From a virus: a stretch of DNA of 64,000 nucleotides. Location: the IMG/VR virus record IMGVR_UViG_3300044726_000156. One strand, given 5' to 3'. Below are positions 4,491-53,491 of this stretch, in pieces (the first letter of the stretch is position 1; every line of letters begins with the position of its first letter). The notes beneath the pieces are model-generated. The model was not told where the DNA came from. It searched no databases and worked only from the letters and a program-made list of their open reading frames with translations. Made by a program: the position numbers and the translations under genes.

Positions 4491-6884
4491 TCACGCGGGT
4501 GGCGGCGCTCCACCAATCCCTAGTTGCTCTTGTGGTCCCGCACCGGGCTGCGGGGGTTCTTGCTGCGACACGCCGGGCTGCTGCTGCTCGGCCTGCTGTT
4601 GCTGCTGCGCGGCGGCCTGTGCCTCCGCGGCCTGTGCCTGTTGCGCCTGCGCCGCCTGCATAGTGGCGAGCTGCGCGGCCTTCTTGTCGGAAGTCGACAT
4701 GAATCCACTTTCCGACAAAATGTAATCGGCCACCGGCGTGGCGGCCGGCACGGCGATCGCCACCTGGGCGGCGTCGAGTGCCTTCTGCTGTGCGTCGACA
4801 TTGTGGCCGGGGATCTTGGCGAGGGCCTCCTGCGCCAGCGCGGTGGTCTGCTCGGCCTTGGCCTGCGCCGTTCTGGCGTCGCCGATCGCCTTCTGCAGCT
4901 GCGCCTCGCCCATCGCCTGCTGCATCATTTGCTGCTTGGCCATCGCCTGCATGCGCTGCTGGTCTTCCGGCGAGGGGTTCTCCTTCTCGTCGGGGTCGAA
5001 CTGTCCGGTGACGCCGCGGATGCGCTTTACGATCTCCTCGCGGTTCGGCAGGTCCATGTTCTCGACGGCCAGGTCGAGCAGCAGGATCGAGATCTCCGGC
5101 GGCAACCGGGTCATCGCCTCCATCAGCTCGTCGGCCGCGGCCTGCCGGATGGTGGCGTGCCAGGCGGCCTCCGAGATGACGAAGTCCGCCTTGTTGCGGG
5201 TGATGTCGTTCTCGGGCAGGCCGTCGTTGACCTCGACATAGTCGGACTTGCCACGCATCGAGGTGATGCGGAACTGCTTCGGCTCGTCCATGAACTGCTC
5301 GATGTTGGCGAGCTGCTTCTCGCCGTGGACCTGCTGCGCGAACAACAAATTGTCGAACAATTTGGCGGTGGCCAGGCTGCCCTGATCCTGCCGGCGTTGT
5401 ATCGCCACGCCCGACGTGGCATTGGTCTTGCGACCCAGCAGCTCGTCGGTGACGCCGCTGGCCTGCTGGATCATGGCGATGTCGCGCGACATCAGTTCGA
5501 GGTGCCATTGGGCAAGGTCACGATCAGCGTTGAGAATGATCTCCTTGCCCGGCACCTTGCGAATAATGGCATCCGGTCGACTGACTTCCTCCTGGAATTC
5601 CTCGAAGGTCATGTCGTCAGGCAGGGCGTCGTAATCCATTATGATCTTCGACGTCGAGAGGATATGAAGCGCCTTGGAAGCGCGCTTGTTCACGTCGACC
5701 TGGATGTCTTTGAGCCGGCGAATGACCCCGTAAGGAGCGCCGTCCTTGCCGCGCCGGTAGCCCCAGATCGGGGTCAGCGGGAAGCGGTTGTGACGGTAGG
5801 GGCTGGGCGAGAACCACAGCATCCCGGCGTCGACGAATAGGCCGACATGCATGCGCATGATGGTCTTCTTGACGACCTCGGCGTCACCGGATTCGACCTG
5901 ATCGGTGTGGCCGGCCGACTGCGGGTCGAACAGCTCGCCCGAAAAGTCGCCGCCCTTCAATTTCCCCGCTGTTACCGGCCGCTTGTACCAGGCCTCGATG
6001 ATCCTGACGCGCATGCGCTGGAAGCCGGTGACGTCGCGCGCGGTGCCGGTGCCGTAGACCTGGTCGAGAGCGTTCTCCTGACTGTCCATCGGCTCGTCGC
6101 CGTACTCGTCGTGCTGCTGGAAGTCGTCGGCGCTGCTGGAAGATGATGTGAGGATCTCCGCGCGGTCGGGAAACAGGGCGATAGCGACGTCGAGGTCCAC
6201 CCATTTGGAGCGGAAGATGTACCTTCCGTCTTCAACGTCGAGGTTTGTGGCGGCCGTATCGTGAAGGACATTGCGCCAGCTTTCGTAGCGTGTGTAGAGC
6301 GGCTCGTCCTCGCCGTCGCCGTCATAGCCGTCCTCGATCCAGCCGATGCCGACCTTGATGGCGTCCTCGAAGGCGCGGGAGATGTGGAAGTGCTCGCGGT
6401 TGACGTCGCTGAGATACTTCATCAGCGCGGTCTTCTGGGAGGCCGGCTTGGCGTGCTGCTTCTTGCGCGGCAGCACCTTGAAGTCGGTGCGCGATCGCTT
6501 TTGTGAACCTGTTATCCAATCGATCGACGTCGAGATGACGTTGTAGACCAACGGCACCTGGCCGCGGTCCTCCAGCTGCGCAGCATCCGCCTCGGACCAC
6601 TGGATATTGTCATAAAAATCATCGTCTTCCGCCATCTCGGCGCGGTTTTCGGCCTGCCGGTCAAGCTCGTTGGAGTAGCAGGCCAGCATCTGGCTGTGCA
6701 GCTCCTGCATCGCCGGCGAATCCAGCTTGGCGCTGTCGCCGCCCGCGTTGGTGCGGTCCGGCATGGCCAGCGCCGTGGTCGCCTTCTGGCTGGCCGGCAT
6801 CGGATCGCCGTAGCCGCCGTTCTCCCTGTCTCGCTTCGCCCTCACCGATCCGTCGCGCGCCCGCAGGTCGAACATCTGTGCCAT
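4491..6884 (-). CDS. Portal protein (P22/Bcep22-like)
   Basis: 797 aa; motifs EDDDFYDNIQW, GQVPLVYNVI, RFPLTPIWGYRR, G-x-PYGVIR, QQASGV and SGVAIQRRQDQG; Q/A-rich C-terminal barrel. Confidence 0.92.
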   Translation of the reverse strand: MAQMFDLRARDGSVRAKRDRENGGYGDPMPASQKATTALAMPDRTNAGGDSAKLDSPAMQELHSQMLACYSNELDRQAENRAEMAEDDDFYDNIQWSEADAAQLEDRGQVPLVYNVISTSIDWITGSQKRSRTDFKVLPRKKQHAKPASQKTALMKYLSDVNREHFHISRAFEDAIKVGIGWIEDGYDGDGEDEPLYTRYESWRNVLHDTAATNLDVEDGRYIFRSKWVDLDVAIALFPDRAEILTSSSSSADDFQQHDEYGDEPMDSQENALDQVYGTGTARDVTGFQRMRVRIIEAWYKRPVTAGKLKGGDFSGELFDPQSAGHTDQVESGDAEVVKKTIMRMHVGLFVDAGMLWFSPSPYRHNRFPLTPIWGYRRGKDGAPYGVIRRLKDIQVDVNKRASKALHILSTSKIIMDYDALPDDMTFEEFQEEVSRPDAIIRKVPGKEIILNADRDLAQWHLELMSRDIAMIQQASGVTDELLGRKTNATSGVAIQRRQDQGSLATAKLFDNLLFAQQVHGEKQLANIEQFMDEPKQFRITSMRGKSDYVEVNDGLPENDITRNKADFVISEAAWHATIRQAAADELMEAMTRLPPEISILLLDLAVENMDLPNREEIVKRIRGVTGQFDPDEKENPSPEDQQRMQAMAKQQMMQQAMGEAQLQKAIGDARTAQAKAEQTTALAQEALAKIPGHNVDAQQKALDAAQVAIAVPAATPVADYILSESGFMSTSDKKAAQLATMQAAQAQQAQAAEAQAAAQQQQQAEQQQPGVSQQEPPQPGAGPQEQLGIGGAPPPA

Positions 6885-7600: not shown

Positions 7601-7897
7601 TCAGGCGACATCGTAAACGGTCTCCTTCTCCAGCGGCCACATGAACAGCGGCGTGTTCTCGCCGACCCACGCGCCCAGCGTGTTGAACTGGAAGAACTCC
7701 TCGGCCTCGTCCCACTCCATGCCGTCGCGCTCCATCAGAACCCGAATGCATTTGTCGCAGTCGTAGACGACCAGCGTCGGCTGGCCGCAGCGTTCGGCGA
7801 CGCCGATGATGGCGTCCTCGAAGCCGTCGGCGAACAGCGCCTCGGGATTGCTCTCTGCGACGCGCTCGCGCAGCGCGTCGATCTCTTCCGAGGTCAT
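7601..7897 (-). CDS. Conserved phage hypothetical protein (98 aa)
   Basis: Widespread phage motif ADGFEDAIIG...VVYD...C...LMERDGM...EA.EFF.FN..GAWVG..TP.F. Confidence 0.85.
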   Translation of the reverse strand: MTSEEIDALRERVAESNPEALFADGFEDAIIGVAERCGQPTLVVYDCDKCIRVLMERDGMEWDEAEEFFQFNTLGAWVGENTPLFMWPLEKETVYDVA

Positions 7898-8097
7898 TGA
7901 TCCTCCATCTCGTTGGCTACGTCTTCAAGGGCGATCGCGATGCCACGATAGCCCCGCTGGTTGTCGCGGGAGGAGGCGTTGCTGGCCAGGTTGCGGTAGA
8001 ACGCCGCGGTGTTGCGAACGATGGTGGCGCACCTGTCGCGCTCGGCGCGGCGGACGGCGCGCGTCAGGAAGTCGGCGTCGTGCTCCTTGACCGTCAT
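7894..8097 (-). CDS. Hypothetical protein (67 aa)
   Basis: ATGA overlaps on both sides. Confidence 0.7.
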   Translation of the reverse strand: MTVKEHDADFLTRAVRRAERDRCATIVRNTAAFYRNLASNASSRDNQRGYRGIAIALEDVANEMEDQ

Positions 8098-8276
8098 CGG
8101 TTGTGCCTGTGGTAAACACGGTTATAGCCGGCGAGCGGCGCATCCTGGTCGTTGCGGACCTCGTCGATCAAGCGTTGGAGAGCGACCGAATGCAACGGCA
8201 CGTCCACAGTTGGTGGCAGTGGGGTTGGTGGTTCCTGATCGGATTTCGGATCAGGCCGCGGTAAGTCATATCGCAA
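8094..8276 (-). CDS. YhhA-like cyclophane (triceptide) RiPP precursor peptide (60 aa)
   Basis: TTG start with GGAGG 6 nt upstream; leader S-x-ALQRLIDEVR and C-terminal core YNRVYHRHNR-stop. Confidence 0.72.
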   Translation of the reverse strand: MRYDLPRPDPKSDQEPPTPLPPTVDVPLHSVALQRLIDEVRNDQDAPLAGYNRVYHRHNR

Positions 8277-8294
8277 CGACGGCCTCCATCCAGA

Positions 8295-8381
8295 TCAAAT
8301 CATCCCTGCCCACAGCAGGAGCACCAGCAGCATGACGAAGACGATCAGCGCCTTGCCGATCAGCTCCTCGCGCGGACTCAC
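8295..8381 (-). CDS. 28-aa single-pass membrane peptide MSPREELIGKALIVFVMLLVLLLWAGMI
   Basis: GTG overlaps the previous stop (GTGA); the stop precedes the RBS of the next gene. Confidence 0.55.
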   Translation of the reverse strand: MSPREELIGKALIVFVMLLVLLLWAGMI

Positions 8382-9349
8382 GATCGCCGCACCGGCGCGG
8401 GCCGCGACACGGTGACGGGCACGACATCCTGGTCAGGCGTGTCGTCCTGCACCGCCGGGTAGACGATGAAATCGATCCAGCCGACCGTCGGCGAGACGAT
8501 CTGAACGGTCCATGTGGTGGCCCCGAGCGCGATGTTGTCGCCCTGGATGATCAGGTCCAGCACCGCGGACTGGTCGACCGCCGCATAGTCGACGCGCGAC
8601 ATGCGCAATGTGTCGACCGACAGGTTCGGATGCACGATCTGGCCGTTGGCCGGCTCCCATGGCGGCTCGCTGCCCGGCTTGTAGTATTGCCACTCGGCGG
8701 TGGTGGTCGGCAGCGGCGGCGGCGGCGTCGGCGGTTCGACCGGGATCTCCGCTGCTGGGGTGATGGAAACGACGACCAGCCCCTCGACGGCAGCCTGATC
8801 GGCTGGCGTGATGAGGAAGTCGAACCAGCGATCGCCCTCGACGAGACTGTGGTAGGCCGCAGCGTTGACCGTCCACAGCACCTCGTCGATCGCAATGAAA
8901 TCGCCGGGCTTGACCAGCTCGAGCGTGGCGGTCTGGTCGAGTTCGGCGGCGTCGATGCAGTTCACCGATATCTGCGACAACGTCAGATTGCCATGCACGA
9001 TCTCGCCGGGTGCGGGGATGCCGCCATCCGGCTTGGTGTAGTTCCACGGCGCCGCGGTCGCCTGCAGCCGCGGCGGCTCGGGCGTGATGACCGGCGGCGG
9101 CAACTCGTCGCCGGCGGTGCCGGTGATGATCTGCAGCACCGGCGGGTTGTTGACGATCAGCTCGTAGGCGTCGGCCAGCGGCGCGCTGATCAGCATGAGG
9201 TAGCTTTGCAGCGCCGGACGGTCGACGACGCCGGTGATCACAATCTCGGTCATCGACGGCGAATCGAGCGTGGTCATCGCCTCGATCGGCTCCGAGAATG
9301 GTGCGATCGGAGCGTCGTCAACGAGGATGGCGATGATCTTTATGGCCAT
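8378..9349 (-). CDS. Hypothetical protein with two ~100-aa tandem beta-rich modules resembling tail-fibre shaft domains
   Basis: Both modules carry W.Y.KP...P..G.IVH.NL....D.A..DQ.A.L.L...GD.IA....WTV and are joined by Pro-rich linkers. Confidence 0.7.
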   Translation of the reverse strand: MAIKIIAILVDDAPIAPFSEPIEAMTTLDSPSMTEIVITGVVDRPALQSYLMLISAPLADAYELIVNNPPVLQIITGTAGDELPPPVITPEPPRLQATAAPWNYTKPDGGIPAPGEIVHGNLTLSQISVNCIDAAELDQTATLELVKPGDFIAIDEVLWTVNAAAYHSLVEGDRWFDFLITPADQAAVEGLVVVSITPAAEIPVEPPTPPPPLPTTTAEWQYYKPGSEPPWEPANGQIVHPNLSVDTLRMSRVDYAAVDQSAVLDLIIQGDNIALGATTWTVQIVSPTVGWIDFIVYPAVQDDTPDQDVVPVTVSRPAPVRRS

Positions 9350-9399
9350 GTCACGTCCCTTGTGCGAAGCAATGTGCTCTCATGCACATGGAGGCGATA

Positions 9400-10137
9400 T
9401 TGACACTGACCGCGGCGCTTGGCGAGATCGCCGAAAAATTCCTGCCGTCCCGCCACACCATCACGTTCACATGCCCGCCGCATCTGCTCGGCGTCGTCAC
9501 GCCGCCGCGCCCGGCCGGCGACGTGCTGCCGGAATGGTACAGGAAGATGCCGGCGGTCGACCCGGAGATCGTGTCGATCGAAAGCACTGGCGTCACCCTC
9601 AAACGCTGCATGCCGTTCCTCGACGCGCTCAACGCCGGCTGGATCCTGTCGCTGCCCGCCGAGGTGCATTTCGAGATCAGCGACGACGGCCAGACCGTCC
9701 GTGACAAGCACAACATGCCGTTCAACCTGGTCGAGAGCCACGTCGGCTACCAGACCAAGGGATCGCACTGGGGCGAGACGCCGCCGCTGAAATTCATCAA
9801 CCCGTGGACCATCACGACGCCGGCGGGCTGGTCGACCTTGTTCGTGCCGCTGCTCAATCGCGAGCGCGAATATTTCGAAGTGGCGTCCGGCCTGGTCGAC
9901 ACCGACCGCTACCCGCACCCCGTCAACTTCCCGTTCTTCATGCTGCCCGCGGCGCGCGGCAAGCTGTTCGCGCTGAAGAAAGGCACGCCTCTGGTGCAGA
10001 TGATCCCGGTCAGGCGCGACAGCTTCCGCGCCGACATCCGCAGCGCGACGGCGGACGAGATGCTGGCGGCCGATCGGACGTCGCTGAAGATGAGCGCCGA
10101 GCCGTCCTGGTACAGGAAGCGCGTGCGGCAACGCTGA
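9400..10137 (+). CDS. dUTPase-fold-like (DUF6065-related) hypothetical protein, antisense to the late operon
   Basis: Motifs PEWYRKMP, T.KRCMPFLDAL..GW, KFINPWTITTP.GWS.LF, SGLVDTD.Y...VNFPF and KKGTPLVQMIP..R. TTG at 9400 has a GGAGG RBS; the ORF track starts at 9382. Confidence 0.75.
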   Translation: MTLTAALGEIAEKFLPSRHTITFTCPPHLLGVVTPPRPAGDVLPEWYRKMPAVDPEIVSIESTGVTLKRCMPFLDALNAGWILSLPAEVHFEISDDGQTVRDKHNMPFNLVESHVGYQTKGSHWGETPPLKFINPWTITTPAGWSTLFVPLLNREREYFEVASGLVDTDRYPHPVNFPFFMLPAARGKLFALKKGTPLVQMIPVRRDSFRADIRSATADEMLAADRTSLKMSAEPSWYRKRVRQR

Positions 10138-10379: not shown

Positions 10380-10570
10380 GTCGCCTCGCGGCCGCGCAGC
10401 AGATACACCAGCTCGACGGCGAGGGCGCCGCGGGTTCGGATCAGCTCGTCCTTGAGATCGGCGTCCCACGCCCCTGCAGCGTCGCTGCGGCGGACGCGGT
10501 CGCAGGCTTGCAGCCATTCCTCGGCGGCCATCAGCACGTTGAGGGCGTTGGCGAGGTCAGCCGGGATCAT
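10376..10570 (-). CDS. Hypothetical protein (64 aa)
   Basis: ATGA overlap with the terL stop. Confidence 0.65.
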   Translation of the reverse strand: MIPADLANALNVLMAAEEWLQACDRVRRSDAAGAWDADLKDELIRTRGALAVELVYLLRGREAT

Positions 10571-12126
10571 GCTGCCAGCCCCGACTTGTTCTTGCGCGGC
10601 GTCCAGCGGCCGGCGCCGGCGCCGAACCGGAGGTGGCGGATCTGCGCATGCTGGCGGATCGCATCAGCCGCGTGCTGGTGGCCGTTCTTGGCGACCAGCG
10701 GCATCCACACGCCCATCCGTTCGTTCCACTGCTTGGAGAACCCGTCGAGATGCCGGATCCCTAGCGCGCACTTCTCCTGGTCGATCCAATACGTTCCGAA
10801 CGCTTCGCGCAGTTGATCGATCGCATCAGGGACGTGAGGTGTTCGCTGGACCGTTTCGACGTTGGTGACACCCAGATCCCGTAGCAGGTCGACGTAAGTC
10901 TTGAGGTGCTCCGCACCAGGACGACGTTGATTGGCGTCGTGTGGAAGATAATGCCAGCCGTAGACATAGGGGCGCTCCCGCATTTCTCGCACATAATAGC
11001 TCGGCGGCTCCGACGCCGCCTCGGTGTAGTCGATGAAGTACTGGTTGGGTCCGAAATCCTGGTGGAACCAGATCGCCGTGTCGTCGCCGGTGCCGATGTC
11101 CCAAAACGTGTTGACCGGACGGCCCGGGTCGTAGGGAACCTTGGTGATGCGGCGCTCGACGCGGGCGCGCGCCAGCTGCGCGGAAAGCCACAGGCCGTCG
11201 GCCGAGACCGTGAACGCCTCCTCCAGCGTCGACGGATATTGCGAGAACATCTTCTCCTGGTCGTCGCCGAACAAATTGCGCCGCGTGAGCACGTACCAGG
11301 CGCGCTTGGCGGGGCTGATGTCGCGGCGGATCTCGCCTTCCAGCCGGTAGAAGTAGGCGATGTCGTTGCTGTCGAGGAAGGCGGCTTTGGGATCGGCTTC
11401 GTATTCCGGTGCGTCCCACCAGCTGGCGAAGTGCAGCTTCCACTCGAGCGTGCTCGGCGCCCTGTCCTCCTGCTGCGTCTTCTGGGCATTGCGCACCATG
11501 TCGGCGAAGATGCCGTAGGGCGTCTCCATGGTGCTCTCGATGCAGATCACGCCGTGCTGGTCGACCGACGGCAAAGATCCTGTCTGGATTTCAGTGGCGC
11601 GGTCCGGGTAGCGTTGGCAGATGCGGCCGTACTCGGAGACGTGCAGATACTGCAGCGTGGTGCCGCGGGTGCTGGTCGCGACGATCAGGGAGCTGTCGGT
11701 ATTGAAGGCCAGCTCGGTCTTGGTCAGGTACTTCAGCCCGACCATTTCCTTGACCAGCTTCGGAAGGTTGTCCCAGGCGAAGCGCACCTTCTGCTCAAAG
11801 ATCACCCGGGCGGTGTCCTCGTCCTGCGCGATGATCGCGGCCTGCGTGTTCGGCTGAAAAAGGCACGCATCCAGCATCATCAGCTGGATGACGGTGGAGA
11901 AGCCGCGCTGCCGCGCCTTCGGAATGAGGTTGCGATAGTGGATGGCGCGCAGGAACCGCTGCTGCTCCGGCCACGGCTTGAAGGTCACCACCTTGCCGCG
12001 CTTGTCGGTGATCTTGTAGAGGTTGCTCAGCCTCCACCCCGCGTCGCCGATCGCCGCCTGCATCTCGTCGGGCGTCAGCGCCTCGAACGGCTTGTTGTAA
12101 TAGCTGGGGATCTCCATGCGGCTCAT
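10567..12126 (-). CDS. terL: Terminase large subunit
   Basis: Walker A-type KARQRGFST, LHVSEYG (Walker B), ESTM coupling motif and nuclease FWDIGTGDDTAIW...H.ADA; start MSRMEIP. Confidence 0.95.
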   Translation of the reverse strand: MSRMEIPSYYNKPFEALTPDEMQAAIGDAGWRLSNLYKITDKRGKVVTFKPWPEQQRFLRAIHYRNLIPKARQRGFSTVIQLMMLDACLFQPNTQAAIIAQDEDTARVIFEQKVRFAWDNLPKLVKEMVGLKYLTKTELAFNTDSSLIVATSTRGTTLQYLHVSEYGRICQRYPDRATEIQTGSLPSVDQHGVICIESTMETPYGIFADMVRNAQKTQQEDRAPSTLEWKLHFASWWDAPEYEADPKAAFLDSNDIAYFYRLEGEIRRDISPAKRAWYVLTRRNLFGDDQEKMFSQYPSTLEEAFTVSADGLWLSAQLARARVERRITKVPYDPGRPVNTFWDIGTGDDTAIWFHQDFGPNQYFIDYTEAASEPPSYYVREMRERPYVYGWHYLPHDANQRRPGAEHLKTYVDLLRDLGVTNVETVQRTPHVPDAIDQLREAFGTYWIDQEKCALGIRHLDGFSKQWNERMGVWMPLVAKNGHQHAADAIRQHAQIRHLRFGAGAGRWTPRKNKSGLAA

Positions 12127-40481: not shown

Positions 40482-43400
40482 TCAGTCGACGGGTTCGGCC
40501 TGCAGTGCCCTCCGCAGCGCCTCGTTCTGGATCAGGATGCCGTCGCCGCGCTCGCGCTTGCCGGCCGCCACTGCGCTGTGACGCAGCGACGAGGCGATCG
40601 ACGTCGACCTGATCGGCATGGTGCGGCCGTAGGTCGACTTGTTCCACTCGCGGATCTTGGCGATCGCGTCGCGGCGCCCGGCGTCGTCACCGAGCTTCAC
40701 CGCCATGGCATAGCCGTTGATGTAGGCTTGCCGGGTCACCTTGATGCGCTGCTCGGCGCCCTTCAGGCGCGAGGTCTCGTCCCACTTTTCGGCGATGTGG
40801 GCCGGAGTGAATCCGGTCGCCTGCGCGATCACCGACCACCAGCCGGTGTCGTCCTGCGAAATGATCGTCTCGCCCGTCTTGGTGGTGACGCCCTCGGTCA
40901 GGTAGCGATAGCTCTTCAGCACGTCCTTGGCCGCCTTGGGCAGGATGGTTTCGGTGCCGCGCCACGCATTGCCTTCGGCGAACAGATCGTAGCCGCGCAT
41001 GACCTGGTCGATGATGCCGGCCGGGGCGCCGACCCACTGCGACAGCATGTAGCTGTACATGTCCTTGCCGGTCTCGATGTCCTGGTTGGGCGAGCGGAAC
41101 CACAGGTCCGGCATGCCGACGCGGGATGTCAGGTCGACGCCGGTCAGCGTTCCGATCGGGCCGTGCAGCAGGACGTTGGACAGCACCGGGCCGAATATAT
41201 CTTTGATCGCCGCCTCGAAGTTTTCCTGCGCCGTGAAAGGGTCGTCGCCCTCGTCGCCGCCGCCAAAGATCGTCGCCATGATCGTCGAGGCGATGCCGTA
41301 CAGGAAGAACGCCGTGTTGTAGCCGGCCACCGCGGTGCCGCCGGCGACCAGCGCCTGCATGCCGAGGATGCCGGCGAGCTGGTAGCGGGCCTCGCGGCGC
41401 AGCTGCTTGGCCTCGACCAGGTCGGCCCCGGTCAGCCCCTTGATCGGCTTGAGGAACGACACATAGAGGTCGCGGCCGAGCCGGTAGAGCATGTTGATCT
41501 GGTAGGAGCGCATCGCCATGATCGTCTTCATGCCGGGCGTCGTCAGGTGCCGCGGCCGCGACGAGTTCGCGTAGTCGAAGTGGGTCTTCCAGACGATGTT
41601 GCTGGCGGTCTTGACGGCCGTGGCGTGGTTTTCACCGGCCTCGATGGCCAGCCGGTAGGCGGCCAGTCCGGTGACCCTGCGATTGATCACCTCGGCCTTG
41701 TGAAACATGATCGTCAGCGCGCCCATGACGCGCGTCCTGATCGGATTGTAGCCCGCGCCCTGCTCGCCGACGCCTTGGATGTCGTAGCTCTGCGTGTTGT
41801 CGATGACGCCGGCGTCGACCATGTCGTTCAGCGCCCGCTCTTCGGTCGCCGACATGCCGCGATTGGAGATCGCGTTGCGCGAGGCGCGCGCCACCGCCGA
41901 CGCAGCCTTCGACATGCTGCCGAACCGGCCAGCCATGATCGGAATGCCGACCATCGGTGTCTGCGCCAGATTGACCGCCGCGGCCGCCGGAGAGGCACCG
42001 AGATAGTATCCGAACGCGGAGGTCGCGGCCCACTGCGCCCACGCCTTGCCGGTCGGGTTCATCACCCAATTGTTGCGCTGCACCATCTCGTCGAAGATGT
42101 TGGTCGCCTGGATCTGCTCGGCCTCCGGCGCGTCCTTGGCGGCCAGGCCCATCTCGTCGATGGTGTCCTGCATATCAGGGGCGTGCTTGAGCTTGGCCAT
42201 CTGGTGGGCGGCGTGGAACATGTGGTTGGCGAAGACGCGCAGCGCGTCGTCGCTGTGCCCCGCGACCATGCTGCGGTGGATGGCGCGGCTCCTGACCGAC
42301 AGGTCCGGCATCGACTGCAGATGGCGCTGCCAGATCTGGTCGAGGATGTTGTCGCGGATCGCCCGCATTCCGGGGTCGTTGGCGTTGGGGATGCCGTCCA
42401 GCATCGCCTCGATCTCGGCGATGAAGGTCGGCTTGATGACCTCCGTCATGTGGTTCAGCTTCGACGGCATCTTGCCCGACTTGATGGTGTCGCCGGCCTG
42501 CAAGTGCGTCCGCGCCGCGGCCTTCATCTGCTTGGCCTGGAAGGCGCTCTCAGCCATCCCGAAATACACCAGCTTGCCGGTGTCGTCGCGGATCGCGACA
42601 TAATAGCTGCCGAACCGGCCGAGCGGGAAATACGGCGCCTTGACCTTGCGGGTCTCGAGCATCGAGCGCAGCCGGTTGACGCGGAAGCGCGCCGACCAGT
42701 GACCGCGCGCCTCGGCGGCGGCCGCAGCGGCGTTGAGCCGGGTGATCTCGGCCGTCTTCTCAGCGGCGGTCTTGCGCGGGTCGGCCTGGATCTCGGCCTC
42801 CTTGCGGGCGCGCTCGCGCTCGGCGGCACGGCGGGCGATCTCCTGCGCCTTGGTGACGTTGTCGAGCAGCAGCTGGTCCATCGCCTGTGACTGCTCCTTG
42901 TAGGCGTCGCGGACCTTGCGGTAGAGGTCGCGCCCGGCGTCCGGCATCGCGTCGAAGCGCGTCTTCAGCGCCGCATAGTCCGGCTCGAGCATGTCGTTGA
43001 GATCGTCAGGATCGACGCCGGCCTTGGTGGCGTCGTGCATCAGCGACGCCAGCGCCTGCATCTTGTCCTTGCCGGCTCGCCCGTACCTGCGCCAGTCCTG
43101 CACGATGTTGTCGGCGGCGTGGTGGAGGACGTTGCGCATGGTGTCCATCGCGCGCTTCTGGTCGATGTAGCGTTCGACGAACGCCTTCACCGATTTCGGC
43201 GACAGGTCCGGCATGTAGTTGAGGTAGACCGCGCCAAGCATGGCCGGCGTGGCGCCGGTCCACAGGCTCCTGATGCGGTCCTTGAGCTGCCACTTGCCGG
43301 GCTGGCGCAGCGTCGAGGCGGCGCCGCCGACGGCGCCGCGGACGTCGGCCAGCAGCTCGTTGATGACGCTGGCCTCGAGGACGTGCTCGCTGTCGGGGTC

Positions 43401-46400
43401 GAAGGTGCCGCGGTTGGCGGTCGACTTGATCTGGTTCGGACGGAACGCCACCCAGGCGTCGGCTTCGTACTCATCCGCGCCGTAGCGTTCGGACAAAAGC
43501 TTGTCGCCGACGATGTGGACGCCATCGTAGCCCTGCTTGATGTAGCGTTGCTGGATGCGCTCCATCTCCTCGGCGCGGCCGTCGGCGTCATAGTCCTGCA
43601 GATAGGCCCAGTCGCCGAGGCCGTTGACCATGTCGATGAACTCGACCGCCGACATCACGTAGGGGTTCTTGATCTTCAGGTAGACCGGCATGAGGTTGGC
43701 GCCGGCCTTATGGGTGAATTTGCGCGGCCAGGTCGTCTCGTCGGGGATCTCGCCGGCGAACATGTTGGCGATGCCGGTGTCGGCCGAGAACCAGAACCCG
43801 AGGTTCGCCGTGGAGTGGCCGGTGTTGGTGCCGCTCTCGTTGGGGTCGAAGCGCGAGAAGTCGGCGGTGGTGCCGTGATAGACGCGCAGCGGGTTGCCGT
43901 CGGCGTCGACCACCTTGCTGCCCTTGAACCACCGCTCGAATTGCGGCGTGCGCAGCCGATCGGAAACGTCGGCCGCTTCTAGTTCTGGAACATCTCCGGC
44001 AGCTCCGCTTCCAGCTCCGCGCTCCAATTGGCGGGCAGGTCCAGACCGTATGCCGACTCCAGATATTGTTCTCTCGTAAGTGGAAGGTTCAGCTCCACCA
44101 TCATCCCGAGCACCGGGTCGATACCAGCTTGGAGATTCAATTCCTCCGGCGAGACGGAGGATCTCAGATCTCGCGGCTTCTGCGGTGATTTCGCCATTTC
44201 GCACCCGCCTCCACACGGCGTCGATCATCTCGACATTGGCAGCCTGCGCCTTGAATGTGGCAGTGAACAGGCCGCGTACTGCCTCCCACGTAATAGACTG
44301 CAGCTCGCGCGGCAAGATACCAAGTTCAGCCGCAAGTTCACGATGAGCATCGGCGATCAGGCCGTAAGATCCACTGGTGCCTGAGATGCCGACATTCTTC
44401 ATCGACCGCCAGTTGCGGTCCTGGTCCTCGAGCGGCGGCGAGGTTCCGAAATTGTGGTTGACCTCATAGGAGCCGCCCGACAGCGCGCGCAGCAACGCCG
44501 CCGCGACGGCGTGGGTGTCGATCGTAACGTCGCCCTTCTTGGCCTTGGGCGCGAGGATGTTGTTGAAGAAGTTGCGGACCTTGTGCTTCTTGCCCATCCG
44601 CTTGGAGACGTTCTCATAGGACGGGTCGCGGATCACCGCGACCGCCTTGCCGATCTCCGACAGCGATCCCCATGCGACGTTGTCGACCAGGTCGCCGACG
44701 AAGTTACCCTCCGAGCTGACCTGCCGGTGACGCGGGTCGTGGTAGGTCTGGTCGTAGATCCTGACCCACATCGCCTGCATGGCGTAGACGTGCTTGGTGC
44801 CCTTGTACTGCTCGTCGATCTGGTCGAGCGTCTTGCCGCGGATCAGGTCGAGCATGGCGACCTTGTCGGGCTTGGTGCCGAACAGCACGTAGCCGTTCTC
44901 GCCCATCATGTTGGTCCACGGCGCCTTCGAGCGGAACGTCATAATGTCGAGCACGCGCTCGGCCAGGCTGACGTTCTGATACCAGTCCTTCTGCGGCGAC
45001 AGCGCCGCCAGCGCCCCGGCGATGACATGGTCGGGCAGCTTGTAGCGGACCATCCAGTCGTCGGTGATCTTGCGTGCGCCGTCGTACCAGAGCTTGGTGC
45101 GGTTGCGCTGCGCCGGCGGGATCTGATCGTACAGCCAGCGCAGATTGGCCTTGACCATGTCCTTGAACACGCGGGCGATGTGGTCGGAATTCCGGGTGGC
45201 GATGCCGCGCGGCATGTTCACGTACTGGGCGACCACCCGCATGTTGTGCTGGAAGGCGCCCTTGTTCGGCTCGGCCTTCATCGAGGCGGTGTCGACGGTG
45301 AGCCGCTCGACGAGCGGGTCCTCGGTCTTCGACACCAGATCGGGGAAGCGCGTCGAGATCCGAACCGGGCTGTCGCCGTCCTTCTGAACAGACGAGGTCG
45401 GAACCTCGCGGTCCTTGAACGGCGGCATGCTGGCCTCGAGCGACGGCCCCTGCTCCATCTCGGCGACGGCGGCCGGCGACCACGGGCCGTCGACCATCTC
45501 GCCGCCGTTCTTCCAGTTGACCCACGCCTTGACCCGCTCGATGCCGACCGCCTTGGCGACGCGGATGCGGGTGTTGCCCTCGTTCATAAATGCCTGGCCC
45601 TTGTGATTGACCATCACGAAGACCGGGTTCTCGTTGGTGTAGCCGCTCTCCTTCACCTTCTTCAGCAGGTTGTCGTACTGGAACTCACCCTCGGCGCGCT
45701 TGCCGTGCTCGTCCATGATGCCGGGCAGCTTCAGCAGCTCGTCGACCGGCAGGTAGAGATCGGATTTCTGGCCGGCGGTGGCGGTGGTGGCGCCGTAGGT
45801 GCCGCTCTTCGCCGGGCCAGGACGAGTGGCGTTGGCCATGTCCTCCTCGGCGTTGGCCTGCTTGCGGGCCAGCCATTCCTCGCCGCCCGAGTAGCCCTTC
45901 ACCGCCGGATTGTCCTGCGTGAAGCTCACCGGACGCGCCTCGACCGCCGGTGCGGCGCGCTGCACCGGACCCTTGAGCAGCTCCTTCTCGGTCGGGATCG
46001 AGCCATGCACGCGCTTGCGCGTGTCGTGGGGGTCGTCGACCCACTGGTCGCCCTTCTTGATGGTGTGCTGCACCACCACGGCCCAGCGGCCGTGCTCGTC
46101 AGGCTCGAAGGCGATCACCCTGTCGTGGGTGCCGCCATAGCTCTTCACGATATTTCCCGGCGTGTAATATTCGGAGACCCGCGCCATGAATTCGGCGCGC
46201 TCACGCTCGGCCTTGGTCGGCTTCTTCGGCTTTACTGCCGCTTCGCCGCCAGCTTTTTGTCCAGGTTTAGCCGGTCCCGCAGCCGGCTTTGCGCCGACGC
46301 CAGCATCTCGTTTCGCTGACGGCCGGGTGGTAGCGCCGCCATCTCGTCCCTGAAGGACCGCAAGATCTGCGGTGTGGCGAACGGGTCCGGCTGGTCGATC

Positions 46401-49400
46401 AGCATCGGCGGTTCCGCCGAGGGCTTTGCGGTGTTTGGCGACGACTTTGTCATAGGCTTCCTTGATACCAGGGATCGCCAACATAGGCGAGCCGGCAATG
46501 CGGCCGACGACGTCATAGTCGACAATGCCTGCCTCCTGCAGGGCCAGGTTGGAGAGGTGGTGGAATTCGGGGCTGGCGTCCTCGACCGTGGTCACGCCGT
46601 CCATGATCGCCTGCTGCATGGCGCGGATGATCGGCTTGGTGGCGTCGTCCAGATACCGCTTCACGCGCGATGTGTGGTCGGTTTCGTGGTAGCCGAGCTT
46701 GGCGCCCTTGATCAGGAAGGCGCGACCGGCCGCCGTCGCCGCCATGCGGAACGAGGTCGCGCCGTTGTGTAGGTGCGCGTAGATCGCCGTAACGCCGGGC
46801 AACGCGGCGACGGAAACGTCGGCCTCGCTCAGCGACACGCCGATCGGATGGTTGTGGTGGATGACCACCTGTTCCGTAGCATTGGTCAGGATCCGCCAGA
46901 TCCGCGGCGACAGGCTGACCGAGCTTTTCTTGCCTTCGCCGTTGCCGACGACATCGCCGTTGGCGTCGACGATGACCATGTTCTCGTTCTTGTTGGCCTT
47001 GCCGCGGGTGATCACCAAATCCTTGGCGGTGTCGCCCTTCTGGCCGTCGAGCGTGATGTCGATGCCGTGGTCGACATAGCGGTTCGGAATGCTGTCCGGC
47101 CCGTTGTTGCGCGCGATCGTGCGCGTGAAGCCTGCCGCGACCGGCGGCTTCGTCTGCACGGTCGCCGCCGCACGGTCCTGGTTCTCGGACATCGACGCAC
47201 GCGCAGTCGGGTCCTGCGCCATGAAGAAGGCGTAGGCGAATCCCTCCGGCGTCAGCGACCGCTCGGCCTTGTCGTAAGGATTGTCGCCGCGCAGCTTGGA
47301 CTGCATCTTGGAGCCTTGCACAGGCTCGACCGGGGCGATCGGCAGGTCGGTGGAGAACGACCCCCACAGCCGCGTCTCCTTGGTGTAGCTGTCACCGAAA
47401 TCGGTCGGATCGAACACCATCAGCGGCTTCGGCAATCCGGTCATTTCCGAGATGCGGCCGCGCGGGTTTTCGAGGACGTGGAACTGCGGCTTGAACAGGT
47501 CCACGTAGGCGCCCGTCATGTGGACCATCCAGGCATTGGCGGCGAGCGGTGTGTCGAAGTGCATCGCCGCCTTTGGTCCGAACCGCTTCAGCACCTCGAC
47601 CGGATTCGGCTTGTCGTGCAGGGTTGGCCAGTGCTGCGCGCCGGACCCGGCGAAGGTGGTGCAGGGGCAGGCGCTGAGCACCCCCACGACGGTGTAATCC
47701 TTGCCAAGCGCCTCCTCGATGTCGCTCTGAATGACGGCCGGCGATTCCTCGAAGATGTCGATGCCGTGGTCGATGTCGATCTGAACGACGTGGTAGCCGG
47801 CGTCGCGGAACGGCTTCGACCAGGACCCCGAGGAATCGAACAGCGAGATGATCACCCGCTTCGAATTGTCGACCTTCGCGCCGATCGCCTTGGCGGTCGC
47901 CTTCCAATCGTCGACGCGGGCGCGCGCCTCGTCCTCGCCGATCGTCGCGTGGCCCTTGGCCGGGTCGATGGTCTTTTTCGGCGTCGGAAAAACCCAGTCG
48001 CCCTCTTTCGTACCGTAGTGAAAATTGTCCTTTTCCGGGTCGTAGCTGATCAGCCCCCCTTCGACGCGGCCCTTCATCAGGATGTCGGCGATCTCGTTGC
48101 CGGCCGCCTCCTCCTCCTCTGGTGTAGAGGCGAAGATCTCCAGCAGCTTGTCCGACAGCTGCTCCTCTGGGGTCCGGGCGCGCTTCTTGCGGAGCTTGGC
48201 CGGCGGGCCGGGGATCTCGGTCGTCTCGGTCGCCGGTGCCTTTCCACGCGGCAGGCTGTCGATGAACGCGCCGATCTTCTTGGCCGCGGTGCCGTCGTTG
48301 TCGGCGTTGGGCAGATGCGCGAACAGCGGCCCGGTGTCGATCACCAGCTGGCCGGGGAAAGCCTTCGCCATCTTGTCGCCAAAACGGGCCAGGTCGGAGC
48401 CGGGAGGCGCCTCTTTGATGCGCCCTCGGATGTCGCCCCACTGCTTGTCGAGCTTCTGAGCCGCGTCGCGCAGCAGCGGGTGGTTGTAATAGTCGACGAT
48501 CTGGTCCTGTGCGCCCTTGTTGAACCAGCCGTCGTCCTTGCCGACGCCAAAGAACGGATACCACTTGCCGGTCGCTACCTTCTCTTTGCCGCCGGCCCCG
48601 GTCGAAATGTAGAACGGCACCTGGACGCCGCCGATATCGACCATCGTGATGATGCGGCCGCCGCGCCGGAAGAACGGGAACTTGGGATCGATAGTGCCAA
48701 CCACCAGCGGCTGGCCCTTGGCCTGCGGCTTGTCCGACAGGATGACCGCAGCCATCTGCTTCTCTTCGTCCGTCCACTGGCCGTAGAACAGCTCGGTCGC
48801 GCCGACCTGCTTCCTGAGTTCCTCGAAGCTGATGCCCTTCTTTTCGGACGCCTCGCGCACCTGTTTGGCGGTCAGCGGAGTGACTGGCTCCGACGCCGCC
48901 GCCGGCGCCTTTGGCGGTACGCCGGCGGCGGGCTTCGCCGCAGCGGAAGGAACTGACGCCGCGGGTTCTCCGGTTTGCTTAGCCGGCTTGGCCTTCTCCT
49001 TGGCGTGCTCGGCCTGCATGCGCTTGACCACGTCCGGCCGCACCCGATGCACGACCTTGCCGAGATCGGCCGCCTGCCTGGCGCGCGAGAAATAGTCGTC
49101 GACCAACGCGCCGGCGCTCTCGAAGGAGATGTTCATCTTGTCGGCGATCGCCTGCTGCGTGACGCGATCGACTTCGCCACGCTGCTTGGGAGCCACCGAC
49201 GAGCGCGCCGCACCGAGATCGTACAGCGTGGCGTGGCCGGCGTCGGGGAACGTGGTCGGCTTCAGCTCGCCGTCGCGAACCGGAACGTCGCGCTGCAAGG
49301 AAGTCGTCGACTTTTTTGCAGGGGGCGCAGCCGGGGCCGCAGTGGGCGCGGCCGCCGGCTTTGCCCCAGTCGTCACGGGTGACGCCGGACGTGCCTGAGA

Positions 49401-52268
49401 CCCTGCGACGGTACGCTGGCGGGCCAGCTTCTGCAACGTCGCGGCAGCTTCCGCGTCGGACATCGCGTCGAAATCGTCGCGATTGACGCCGCCCCATTTC
49501 AGGAGATCGACGACCTCCTGCTGCTCCGGCGTCAGTTGCTCGGCCGCACCGACCTCGGTCGGTGCGGCCTCGCCACCCGCGGTTGGCGACGCGGTCGCGC
49601 CTGCGGGCATCCCTGTCACGTCCGCCCCGGCCGTCGGGGGTGTTTCTTCAGCCGGGGCGGCGAGCGGCGAGACCTGCGCGATCGGCACGGTGCCGACCTC
49701 GCCGTCATCAAACTTGACGTTCGGATCGCCGTTTGGATCGTAGCTCTCGATGACGCCGGTAGTCATCCCCTCCGGCCCGTCGACGCCGGGGATCTGGATC
49801 GTCACCCTTGTTCCGGGCGGCGCCGCTCCGTTGGCGACCGCCTGTTGAGTTACCTGGCGCTGGGCTTCCGTCTCACCGTGGTCAAGGGCGCTCTCCAAAG
49901 CCCCTTTTGGACGGGTCGGGAGATTGGCGCCGGCGACCATGCCGGCGCGCTCTGCAGGCGATGTGACCACGCCGCCCGGGGGTCCACCGGCAGGGGGTGT
50001 TTGCGCGCCAGCCGCCGGTGGTGGTTCTGCTGTCTCGTCAGCGGGAGGCGTGGGTGCCGCGGCTTCGTCCGAACTCACCGCACCGGCCGCGCCGCCGATA
50101 CCGCCGCCCATGATGCCGCCGGTCACCGCGCCGCCGAGCGCGGCGTTGGCGACGCCCTCCGTCAGCTCGCGGTTCGGATCGACATTGCCGACGCCGATAT
50201 TGGTGGCGACCTGCTCGGAGCCACTCTGAACGGTCTCCTCGAGCGCCTCGCCGACGGCTTCCTTGGCCGCGCCCTTGAGGATGCGCTTCTTGACGCCGCC
50301 GCTGAGACCTTTGGACAGGATGTCGGTCAGGATCTTGTCGCCGCGGCCGCCGACCATGCCGGTGGTGACGCCGGCGATCAGTCCGGCCTGCGCCGCCGAA
50401 TCATTGGTGATCGTCGCCTTGGCGTCTTCTGGCGTCATGCCCTCGGCGATCAGTGCCTTGTAGCTGTCGCTCTGTTCCCAGACCTCCTGTGGCAGCGCCG
50501 CCATTTCGGCGCGCACGGCCTCGGACGTCGAGCCGCCGGCCAGCAGACCCTCGCCGACGCCACCGGCCAGCAGCGCCGTCTTGGCTGCCTGCTTCGACGC
50601 CACTTGCTTGGTCAGGCCGGCGGCGACCGCGGCCTTGAACGTGCCGCGTGCCAGCAGCTGCGCCGGACCCATGGTCAGAACGGACGACGGCAGCGATTCG
50701 ACAATGCCCGACAGATACGCGCGCGGGTCGGACCAGGCGTCTCCGAGCTGGCCGTTTTCCGAATCCCACCAATCCTTTTCGCGCGCCGCCTGCGTCTTCT
50801 TCGACAGCGCGTCGGTGTAGGCTTTGGTCTCCTCGGCGAACAGCTGCTCGGTCGGCTTGCCGGTGATGACCTCGTCGATCTTGCTCATCCCGGCTTCGAT
50901 GTAGTCGCCGCCTGGCAGGGCGCGCACGATCTCACGCAGCGCATGGCCCGGCATCTGCGCGCCGAGCACCAGAAGGTTGCCGATGTCGCTCATCAGGCCG
51001 GGCTGCTCGGCGTCCCACTTCTCCTTCCACTTTTCGTAGCCAGCGGCGGGGATCTGGATGAGCGGCTTCTTGCCGTCGGCGATGCGCTGGGCGTTGACGG
51101 CGGCGAGCGGGTCGTCCGGCTTGACCGTCGCCGTCGCCCCCGCCGTCCCGCCGACCGTCCCGCCCACCGTCGGCGGCGCCGCTGCCTGCTTGAAGCTGGC
51201 CATCGGGTCGAACGATTTGATGCCGAACGTGTCGGGCATGTTGTCGGGCGCGATCTCGGCGTCCTTGTTGACGACGATGCGCGCCATGCCGCTCGGTGAC
51301 TGCGCGACAGATCCGGTGGTGCCGTAGTCGATCGAGTTGTCGCCGACCGCGCCGGCGTACTCGAAGTGCATCGGATCTTTTCTGCCCTTGAAGTCGCCGC
51401 CCCAGACCAGGCCGTGCTTGGCGGCCAGCTCGCGGATGTTGCTGGGGAGATCGGATTTGCCACCGCCGAGCGGGTTGGTGACGGCGTTCAAGTCGATCGC
51501 CGTGCCGAACGCATGCTGCGACAGCTTGTTGCCGCCGCGGATCTTGCGGTAGTTGAAGCCGCCGGACGATTTGACGTTGTAGCCTTGAGCGGCGAGGTCC
51601 GAGATCAGGCCGTTGAAGGCCGCGGCCGCCGGCTTGTAGACCGTCCACTTCTGACCCTTGACCGGCTCGATCGTGGTCAGGTTGTCGCGCTGCCACGCTG
51701 GATCCTTGGGATCGCCGATGGTAGCGGTATTGGCCCAGTTGGCTTTGCCGCTGCCGGCGCCGCCGGTGCGGCGCGGCTTGCCCTCGGCCTTGGCGCCGCC
51801 GCTCGTATAGAACTCGTGCTGGCCGATCTTGGCGGTCTTCTTGAGGCCACCGGCCCAGCCGGGCTTGACGTAGTCGGCGTGGTAGTGGTCGGCCCCTCCC
51901 GTGATATCCGGCAGCGCGCCGGTCATCACGCCGTCGACGATGCGCTCGGCCTCGGCGCGGATCGCCGGATCGCGCTGCGCCTTGCGCGCGCCAGCGCCTG
52001 GATGCTCGTAGCCGGTGAACTGCTTGCGCTCCTTGACGACGGCGTCCGGGTCCAGCCCGCGCTTCTCGGCGCGGTTCTTGATGACGCCGGCGACCGCCTG
52101 CATGCCCTTGGAGCCTTCACCAGCGGCTTCGGCGATGACGGTGTCGACAACTGCGCTGCGGTTGCGAGAATGCGCTGGCGGGGCTGCCTTGGCCGCAGGC
52201 GCGGGCGTTGCAGCCGGCTGCTGCGCCGTCGGCTCGAACGAGAACCCCTTGACGACGATTCGTTCCAC
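40482..52268 (-). CDS. Giant internal virion / ejection polyvalent protein (~3,928 aa, PLxRFG type)
   Basis: GTG overlaps the upstream TAG. Domains seen: SleB-type hydrolase, M15 peptidase, C5-MTase, JAB-like, ParB-like, glycosylase-like, ART-like, and C-terminal PYFPLGRFG. Confidence 0.9.
43979..44197 (-). CDS. Nested overprinted gene (72 aa) inside the giant gene, alternate frame
   Basis: GGAGG 10 nt before the ATG; better GC3 than the host frame; GIDPVL..M....[10 protein letters not shown]...W.AE.EAELP. Confidence 0.7.
   Translation of the reverse strand: MAKSPQKPRDLRSSVSPEELNLQAGIDPVLGMMVELNLPLTREQYLESAYGLDLPANWSAELEAELPEMFQN
46232..46405 (-). CDS. Nested overprinted gene (57 aa) inside the giant gene, alternate frame
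   Basis: [26 protein letters not shown]...; 8/57 codons end in A/T versus 33/58 in the host frame (hand count). Confidence 0.68.
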   Translation of the reverse strand: MLIDQPDPFATPQILRSFRDEMAALPPGRQRNEMLASAQSRLRDRLNLDKKLAAKRQ

Positions 52269-53491
52269 TACCGCGACACTCCGAGCTGGCCGACCTGCGC
52301 GGCGCGCATGATGTCCTGCGGCCACTGCTCCGGCGGGATGCCGGCCTGAACCAGCGCCTGGCCGACCTGCTGTGGATTGGCGCCCTGCTTGAGCGCCTGC
52401 GACGCCTGCGCCAGGTATTGCTGCTTCTGACCGTCCTGCACCTCGCTGGTCGCCGCCACCGGCGACGGTGCCTGGCCGCCGACCGGCTCAGCAGGCGCGG
52501 CCGGTGCCTGCGACACCTCGTCGAGCGGCGCCTGAACGCCGAGCTGCTCGTCGGTTTCGTCGGCCGCCGGCGGCGCCGCCGAATCGGTGGCGGGGGTTTC
52601 GATCGGAACCTGCTCGCCGGTTTCCGGGTCGACGGTGACCTGTGGCGCGGCTGGGGCGGTCGACGTCTTTCCGAACCGCTCGTCGACGATCTTGCGGGCC
52701 AGCGCCTCCTTCTCCTCGCCGGTCAGATCGGACAGCTCGGGGTCGGTCAGCGAGTTGGTCTCGATGTTCTTGCGCTCTTCCTGGATGGCGTTCTGGTACT
52801 GCGCCTGCGTCAGCGCGCCGGAACCGACGCCCAGCTCGGCCTCGGCCTGCTTCTTGCGGACGTGCGTCCTGACTTCCAGATCGGCCTTCGACTCGGCCGC
52901 CTTGGCCGCCTGCTCCATCTCGAAGGCCGCCTTCGGGTTGACCAGATTGGCGAAGAACTGCGGCAGGTCGCCGGTGGCGACATTCTTGGTGTGCTCCTTG
53001 CCGTCCTTGGTGGTGAACGACAGGCGATAACCCGTCACCTGGCCCGCCGCCTCGTCGAAATACTCAGCCACCGAGACCTTGCCATCGATGCCGTAGCCCT
53101 GCGTGTTGGCGGCCTTCTGCATGTCGAGCACGGCGCCCTCGATGTCGCCGTTCTGGAACTTGGCCAGCCCGCTCATAAACTTCTTCGAGCCAGCCTTGGC
53201 GGCCGAGGACTCGGCCCAGTCGGCCCACGCCTGCGCCTTGGCCGGATCGCCGTCGAGCAGGTATTCGTTGGCCACCTTGGGCACGACATGCTGGGCATAA
53301 AAGCTCATGTAATCGTCCGGCTCGGCCTCGCCGGACTGGACGGCGGCGTCGAACTCGGCCTTGCCCTCGGCACCGGCCTGCTCGACCGCACCCTCGAGCT
53401 TGCGCTGCTTGCGGATGCCGCGAATCCGATCGCCCAGGTCTATGCCTTGGCTGAACCCCTGCGCGAATGCTCCCAGCGCGATGCCCAGCAT
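52268..53491 (-). CDS. Internal virion / ejection protein (407 aa)
   Basis: N-terminal LGAFAQGFSQG; lies between two ejection genes; AGGAGG RBS. Confidence 0.75.
   Translation of the reverse strand: MLGIALGAFAQGFSQGIDLGDRIRGIRKQRKLEGAVEQAGAEGKAEFDAAVQSGEAEPDDYMSFYAQHVVPKVANEYLLDGDPAKAQAWADWAESSAAKAGSKKFMSGLAKFQNGDIEGAVLDMQKAANTQGYGIDGKVSVAEYFDEAAGQVTGYRLSFTTKDGKEHTKNVATGDLPQFFANLVNPKAAFEMEQAAKAAESKADLEVRTHVRKKQAEAELGVGSGALTQAQYQNAIQEERKNIETNSLTDPELSDLTGEEKEALARKIVDERFGKTSTAPAAPQVTVDPETGEQVPIETPATDSAAPPAADETDEQLGVQAPLDEVSQAPAAPAEPVGGQAPSPVAATSEVQDGQKQQYLAQASQALKQGANPQQVGQALVQAGIPPEQWPQDIMRAAQVGQLGVSR

Follow-up and report, generated by a model that had tools for sequence, protein, structure and literature searches.

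The gene considered here lies on the minus strand at positions 8094-8276 (stop included) of the virus record IMGVR_UViG_3300044726_000156, in a stretch of 64,000 nucleotides that was analysed as a whole and is called the window below. It starts with TTG and is predicted to encode a 60-residue precursor of a triceptide, a three-residue cyclophane belonging to the peptides that are made by ribosomes and then modified post-translationally (RiPPs). The family model NF041705, the homologues and the selection acting on the gene establish it, as far as sequence can, as a genuine precursor gene of the YhhA family. It is best called an orphan, phage-borne variant of this known family, because three family features are found in its sequence whereas the adjacent yhhB and yhhC genes are lacking. 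Orphan YhhA genes recur across phage-like contigs, and this is new here. In the reading that we favour, to which we give an even chance of being right, the phage yhhA would be a counter-defence mimic, competent as a substrate, that exploits the YhhB of the host to neutralise a RiPP-linked Septu module.

The peptide begins with a Pro-rich N-terminal extension (residues 1-26; 8199..8276, minus strand), which is little conserved, varies among homologues and falls outside the family model. The putative leader recognition helix SVALQRLIDEVR (residues 30-41; 8154..8189, minus strand) follows, and a short linker separates it from the terminal core YNR-V-YHR-HNR (residues 51-60; 8097..8126, minus strand), which reads YNRVYHRHNR right before the stop codon. 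Among all NCBIfam models, only NF041705 (RIPP_cyclo_YhhA) is matched, with 52.4 bits and an E-value of 4.2e-14 for a curated cut-off of 36 bits. The alignment places residues 29-60 on profile positions 2-33 of 33, and the score is far higher than a 64-kb window would yield by chance. No Pfam model and no PHROGs model was matched by the peptide. The leader typical of the family, S-V-A-L-Q-R-L-I-D-E-V, occupies residues 30-40 upstream of the core, and the C-terminus of the protein is closed by the three aromatic-X-Arg triplets that define the YhhA core. In an alignment of 24-25 homologues, V31, A32, R35, I37, D38, E39 and V40 are invariant in the leader, as are Y51, N52, R53, Y55, R57, H58, N59 and R60 in the core, where residue 54 is Val. 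The original prediction, made from the letters alone, had described a 60-residue peptide with a TTG start, a GGAGG Shine-Dalgarno sequence, a helical leader and the YNR-V-YHR-HNR core; all of these are read in the sequence. Its assignment of the peptide to YhhA, for which it had proposed a search with hidden Markov models, is upheld by the NF041705 score.

The Shine-Dalgarno sequence GGAGG (8283..8287, minus strand), read directly, stands 6 nt 5′ of the TTG. At the other end of the gene, the TGA stop codon (8096-8094) overlaps the ATG of the next gene (8097-8095) in an ATGA arrangement suited to translational coupling. The gene thus takes its place within a string of co-directional, translationally coupled genes running from the terminase to the portal. 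The start of yhhA and the translation of residues 1-26 are not certain, because the G+C content at third codon positions (GC3) is only 0.46 in the first 26 codons, as compared with about 0.87 in the neighbouring genes. GC3 reaches 0.74 in the conserved part and 0.62 over the whole open reading frame (ORF). Candidate internal GTG or TTG starts occur at residues 24, 26 and 28, all without a Shine-Dalgarno sequence. The family-defining part of the peptide is the same whichever start codon is used.

No maturase accompanies the gene. In the window, tblastn with the YhhB of Sphingomonas as query (L001, 6832-7986; 495 bits with NF041707) returned nothing better than an E-value of 0.4. YhhC, the HExxH hydroxylase, PtuA and PtuB were likewise not found in the window by tblastn, and the window has neither a radical S-adenosylmethionine (SAM) gene nor any genuine coding frame with a CxxxCxxC motif. 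Hence, the neighbouring YhhB and YhhC characteristic of the family are not seen in the phage. A close relative in IMG/VR (L007/G001; 65,514 bp, 100% complete according to CheckV) has a terminase and a portal 85% and 89% identical, respectively, to those of the window. It carries yhhA at 9914-10093, in the same place, after a 321-residue protein and a 26-codon hydrophobic ORF; there the peptide has 59 residues and the core reads YNRTYHRHNR. Throughout this genome no match to Radical_SAM (PF04055) was obtained with a search that scored in 14 of 14 control genomes. The statement of the original prediction that no CxxxCxxC radical-SAM/SPASM gene occurs in the window has therefore held, and the complete relative likewise has none.

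To our knowledge, the biological role of YhhA triceptides is not known, their chemistry being known. YhhB links Tyr C3 and His C2 to the Cβ of Arg within aromatic-X-Arg triplets (PMC11002830, PMC11499958), and the product of YhhC is erythro-β-hydroxy-Asp (PMC12186529). The bacterial set assembled here consists of 31 species-representative genomes recovered by conserved peptide patterns, together with Sphingomonas sp. AP4-R1, giving 32 loci. In all of them YhhB lies directly beside YhhA, one copy (L009) being decayed, and each YhhA copy examined is within about 1.5 kb of YhhB. A whole-genome scan of the 31 genomes with NF041705 yielded 43 matches, one or two per genome, all at the yhhB locus. 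Orphan YhhA genes were thus absent from these 31 genomes, and 14 control genomes had no YhhA at all. FxsB, whose model TIGR04269 scores 332 bits on YhhB, is the nearest relative of YhhB in sequence.

The bacterial genes are arranged in the order (yhhA)-yhhB-yhhA-yhhC-HExxH hydroxylase, followed by a convergent PtuB/PtuA pair. The model scores are 247 bits for YhhC (NF041706) and 87.6 bits for the HExxH hydroxylase (TIGR04267); PtuB and PtuA are recognised by the PADLOC models PDLC00339 (1.9e-80) and PDLC00304 (4e-140). PtuA, an ATPase, and PtuB, an HNH nuclease, make up Septu. Both adjoin the yhhA-B-C-HExxH cassette in 28 of the 32 loci, and PtuA does so in 29. The taxa concerned are Alpha- and Gammaproteobacteria, Binatia, Nitrospirota, Acidobacteriota, Actinomycetota and Syntrophobacterales. 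The original prediction had guessed that the host system might be associated with defence, and in terms of linkage this guess proves sound. From this gene order it may be proposed that yhhABC-HExxH and ptuAB form one defence system. A decayed yhh cassette adjoining an intact PtuA occurs in a metagenome-assembled genome of Pseudomonadales (L009, 5850-7940); what is left of YhhB there is a match of 38 residues, YhhC and the HExxH hydroxylase are incomplete, and no PtuB was detected at this locus.

Orphan yhhA genes, in contrast with their absence from the bacterial genomes, are found in at least 14 distinct phage-like contigs representing about six genome architectures, which is the outcome of the survey of YhhA-like ORFs in phages lacking YhhB that the original prediction had suggested. 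Orphan status was assessed by tblastn of the flanks for YhhB, YhhC, HExxH and PtuAB; the P0033 and P0143 contigs were read as gene tables only. The sampling of contigs was partly guided by length. Beside the window and its relative L007, both Bcep22-like, the gene occurs between terminase and portal in a 44-kb SU10-like contig (L002/L003), beside an SU10-type portal (L004) and just 5′ of the terminase (L005, L006). It also occurs in a lineage with giant proteins and a gene of the gp49/gp66 family (L042, L043/L044, L046, L047), in a row of small ORFs (L048), in a contig (P0143) that has a terminase and, 1 kb from yhhA, a gene of the Acb2/Tad1-hairpin family, beside DNA polymerase A and 7-deazaguanine genes (P0033), and in a PRD1-like tectivirus with a P3 capsid (L050). 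A profile search over 1.84 billion cluster representatives gave 745 members of the YhhA family at E-values up to 1e-3.

Some features of these contigs may be mentioned. In the lineage with giant proteins, a zinc-ribbon-like CxxC...CxxC extension is fused to the N-terminus of YhhA (L042, 10001-10207; L043, 10001-10186; L046, 2550-2750; L047, 4004-4210), and the gene of this type always follows a Phage_gp49_66 (PF13876) gene. A weak match to the Acb2/Tad1-hairpin family, a family of anti-CBASS and anti-Thoeris sponges, is seen at 7099-7422 of L002, 2.6 kb from yhhA. Near the YhhA of P0033, a radical-SAM gene of 236 residues was considered as a maturase and rejected, being too short for a SPASM enzyme and standing among PTPS, GTP cyclohydrolase I and QueF genes; it is read as QueE.

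In the phage copies, leader and core are subject to strong purifying selection. In pairwise comparisons of phage copies over 20 ungapped leader and core codons, the proportion of synonymous differences (pS) is 0.2-1.1, mostly 0.4-0.8, and that of non-synonymous differences (pN) is 0-0.14; L002 and L004, for example, are separated by 10 synonymous and no non-synonymous differences. Because pS greatly exceeds pN, the phage genes are taken to be maintained as peptides, with the leader and the three crosslink triplets preserved. The metagenome contigs covering yhhA were too sparse for a ratio of non-synonymous to synonymous rates (dN/dS) at the population level. One position sets the phage copies apart. 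At residue 54, which lies between rings 1 and 2, each of the 46 bacterial copies has Thr, and 11 of the 14 phage contigs have Val. Fisher's test gives p 1.6e-8 for this contrast, a value that is not a true probability since the contigs are related. Among 162 family peptides, the equivalent residue is Thr in 109, Val in 39, Ser in 8, Ile in 5 and Ala in 1, and the eleven Val-type contexts inspected are all phage-like. Turning Thr into Val takes two base changes, and a hydroxyl is all that is lost.

Structure prediction is consistent with recognition of the peptide by YhhB. With ESMFold2, residues 22-60 of the phage YhhA paired with the Sphingomonas YhhB scored 0.84 in three runs, as compared with 0.03 for the best of three controls. 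In the calibration of the score, the 0.84 mark was met by 51 of 78 solved complexes and by 2 of 108 mismatched pairs. The modelled interface includes residues 26-40 of the leader and 52-55 of the core. The model thus supports a resemblance of the phage peptide to a YhhB substrate.

Considering these data, the following mechanism may be envisaged. Because the phage carries the precursor without any maturase, it would depend on the YhhB of the infected host, where the peptide could only be matured, with the further hydroxylases YhhC and the HExxH protein, or compete with the native substrate. The peptide made during infection would occupy host YhhB and YhhC. By flooding the enzymes with competing substrate, or in the form of a mature analogue with Val for Thr, it would prevent the control that depends on the peptide, that of PtuAB, from acting against the phage. 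A counter-defence role is proposed because bacteria build the YhhB enzyme set into one cassette with PtuA and PtuB. We infer a control of PtuAB by the peptide, and likewise the sense in which the phage would act. The phage peptide would engage host YhhB and YhhC, presumably to the benefit of the phage by disturbing the control of PtuAB.

Two forms of this control may be distinguished. In the first, the mature peptide would be an antitoxin-like brake on PtuAB, comparable to the complex of reverse transcriptase and multicopy single-stranded DNA (RT-msDNA) in Retron-Eco7, and the phage would top it up. In the second, the mature peptide would be an activator or a co-factor, and the phage would flood YhhB or supply a Val analogue that is inactive. 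Both the exchange of Thr for Val and the frequent location in a late operon lean towards this second, antagonist form. A plug made of the leader only seems disfavoured, the preserved core arguing against it. A more specific proposal is possible rather than probable. YhhABC-HExxH and PtuAB would constitute a single peptide-gated system of the Septu type, which unrelated phages would disarm by means of a host-matured, near-isosteric Thr-to-Val cyclophane that is dead or antagonistic.

Several observations are in keeping with the mimic. As would be expected of an anti-defence gene, yhhA is phage-borne, recurs in unrelated phages and is under purifying selection. Two of the contigs have an anti-defence gene of the Acb2/Tad1 type 1-3 kb from yhhA (P0143 and, as a weak match, L002), which we count as support. 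Two independent genomic lines point the same way, namely the association of the bacterial pathway with Septu and the occurrence in diverse phages of the precursor alone, with its residues conserved one by one; a defence component and a viral mimic of it typically show such a pattern. Precedents also exist, by analogy. In Retron-Eco7, PtuAB is placed under an accessory antitoxin module, RT-msDNA holding it in check (PMC12640716), and lanthiphages exemplify lanthipeptide RiPP clusters with an intracellular anti-phage function (bioRxiv 10.1101/2024.06.26.600839). Countermeasures of phages against PtuAB systems are also known (PMC11555353). As far as the searchable literature goes, subscription journals mostly aside, a phage mimic of a defence-linked RiPP precursor is undescribed, and no paper was found there that ties PtuA or Septu to radical SAM enzymes, RiPPs, triceptides or YhhA.

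Comparison with known systems delimits what would be specific to the phage. With the YhhA/YhhB/YhhC triceptide pathway (NF041705, NF041707, NF041706), the peptide shares the leader helix, the YNR/YHR/HNR terminal core and the modelled docking on YhhB. Unlike this pathway, the phage has no YhhB, YhhC or HExxH hydroxylase, its residue 54 is Val instead of Thr, and its gene belongs to a packaging operon whereas the bacterial genes belong to a biosynthetic cassette. The adjacency of bacterial yhhA cassettes to PtuAB is analogous to the coupling of a PtuAB effector to an accessory module in Retron-Eco7. However, the window contains nothing Septu-like, and it is gene order that would link the peptide to PtuAB. 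As regards lanthiphages, the likeness concerns RiPP clusters that lack exporters, are sited with defence genes and are proposed to act inside the cell; the chemistry and the phylum are other ones, and a phage-encoded precursor mimic is not reported there. If the counter-defence reading is true, a whole class of RiPPs gains a function and Septu gains a new, peptide-based mode of control. RiPP-precursor mimicry, in which a decoy substrate hijacks a host post-translational maturase, would be a new counter-defence principle, and independent evidence for triceptides at work in bacterial immunity would come for the first time from the phage genes.

Other observations weigh against a counter-defence mimic. 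In most contigs yhhA stands among late packaging genes, which suits a late antagonist but is a poor fit with early action. The adjacency of the cassette and ptuAB could reflect co-mobilisation. The contrast between Thr and Val is drawn from related sequences, and three viral copies retain Thr. The docking model mainly restates the likeness to the native substrate that is already present in the sequence. Searched for as a clue to the host, the portal had no match in any of the 31 YhhABC-positive genomes. Finally, tblastn of the peptide against 50,697 GenBank phage records gave no match, so that no cultured phage with the gene has been found.

Different explanations may also be considered. The phage might borrow host YhhB and YhhC to make a triceptide for a use other than defence, such as a signal, the binding of metals or nucleic acids, superinfection exclusion or harm to competitors. 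Full conservation of the leader and of the three triplets makes a processed product plausible, and the modelled docking on YhhB agrees with it. Nevertheless, we consider such a use unlikely. It would leave unexplained the linkage of the cassette to Septu in 28 of 32 loci, the Val that replaces an invariant bacterial Thr in phages, and the Acb2/Tad1-type genes close to yhhA in two contigs; moreover, neither an exporter nor a protease is found alongside the gene.

It is less probable still that the peptide acts unmodified, as a small phage protein, for example one with a basic aromatic tail for binding to a nucleic acid (DNA or RNA) or to a protein of the virion or of packaging; common descent, and not the use of a host enzyme, would then account for its likeness to YhhA. 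In six contigs yhhA adjoins a terminase or portal gene, which would suit such a role, as would the N-terminal zinc-ribbon-like extension of some phage versions, reminiscent of a small folded protein. Yet selection keeps exactly those leader residues that are modelled in contact with YhhB, together with the three crosslink triplets. A structural role is in addition unlikely for a gene that is found in phages whose virions are of unrelated types, a PRD1-like tectivirus among them, and in a neighbourhood of replication genes.

The idea of a functionless fragment captured from a host, decaying or hitch-hiking, draws on the GC3 of the ORF, which at 0.62 is below the value of about 0.87 in its neighbours, as for foreign DNA. 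We regard it as very improbable in view of the intact frame, the Shine-Dalgarno sequence, the coupled stop and start codons, the purifying selection across distant phages, the identical copies in independent sediment and groundwater studies and the 39 Val-type cluster representatives of the family search; a decaying pseudogene was accordingly rejected. The original prediction had also mentioned an unsequenced gap in which a cognate maturase might reside. The window contains no N; instead, its ends correspond to positions 39716 and 41705 of the complete relative G001, which places about 1.9 kb of the phage genome outside the window. A maturase hidden there, which would make the precursor no orphan (the window is a 64,000-base cut, and a yhhB of 1.15 kb would fit), is equally hard to credit and was rejected, since G001 has no Radical_SAM match, the G001 interval matching these 1.9 kb has no YhhB by tblastn (loci L039-L041, which span it), the other viral loci searched by tblastn have no YhhB beside yhhA, and bacterial YhhB is always adjacent.

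The window has 65% G+C and is, judged from its genes, that of a Bcep22-like podophage. In GenBank it comes closest to the Bcep22/BcepMigl podophages from Burkholderia and to some phages of Ralstonia, with 74-79% identity over short stretches. All the genes named here are on the minus strand, unless otherwise stated. The gene yhhA is located between that of the terminase large subunit (10567..12126), recognised by phrog_2 and other terminase PHROGs and by its 85% identity to the L007 terminase, and that of the P22-type portal (4491..6884; PF16510, 594.6 bits), which also matches the Bcep22 and BcepMigl portals. The longest ORF of the terminase reaches 12417, adding about 97 N-terminal codons rich in Arg and Pro; judged against L007, the true start is probably the ATG at 12126.

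Immediately downstream of yhhA, the gene whose ATG overlaps its stop codon (7894..8097) encodes 67 residues, with a GC3 of 0.87 and no family match. Directly upstream, a hydrophobic ORF of 28 codons (8295..8381; GC3 0.86), resembling a single transmembrane segment, is coupled through GTGA to the gene of a 323-residue protein. This ORF is too short for the usual ORF-calling thresholds; its counterpart in L007, of 26 residues, is found in the same position (9849-9929). The 323-residue protein (8378..9349) has no Pfam or PHROG match, is kept upstream of yhhA in L007 and appears to contain an internal duplication, in which two copies of a module of about 65 or more residues (W-x-Y-x-K-P ... G-D-x-I-A) can be discerned by eye.

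Between the terminase and the yhhA block, a DUF6065 protein (PF19541, phrog_7084) is encoded on the plus strand (9382-10137) and is kept in L007. Some entries of the ESM Atlas show DUF6065 in fusions, with 2OG-Fe(II) oxygenase domains in viruses and with Cupin_8/JmjC domains in bacteria; such partners hint at a function in company with protein hydroxylases. As a tailoring enzyme of the phage, this protein was considered and rejected: it has no similarity to YhhC and no relative in the PDB, and its single-sequence AlphaFold model, with a predicted local distance difference test (pLDDT) value of 33, was unusable. No tRNA genes and no sigma-70-like promoter were found in the window, and terminator-like matches did not exceed those in shuffled controls. 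A giant ORF of 3,947 codons (40482-52325) is typical of Bcep22-like podophages.

Metagenomes of soil, sediment and groundwater, from 21 studies in all, contain nearly identical DNA, and contigs from two independent studies, one of sediment and one of groundwater, are identical across yhhA. In a freshwater-sediment strain (run X14), a contig matches both flanks of 7843-8442 and skips 7843-8092 and 8111-8442, this region having been replaced in that strain. The neighbourhood of yhhA therefore varies between strains, because this contig skips the region and the gene order of L007, which also differs, agrees with such variation.
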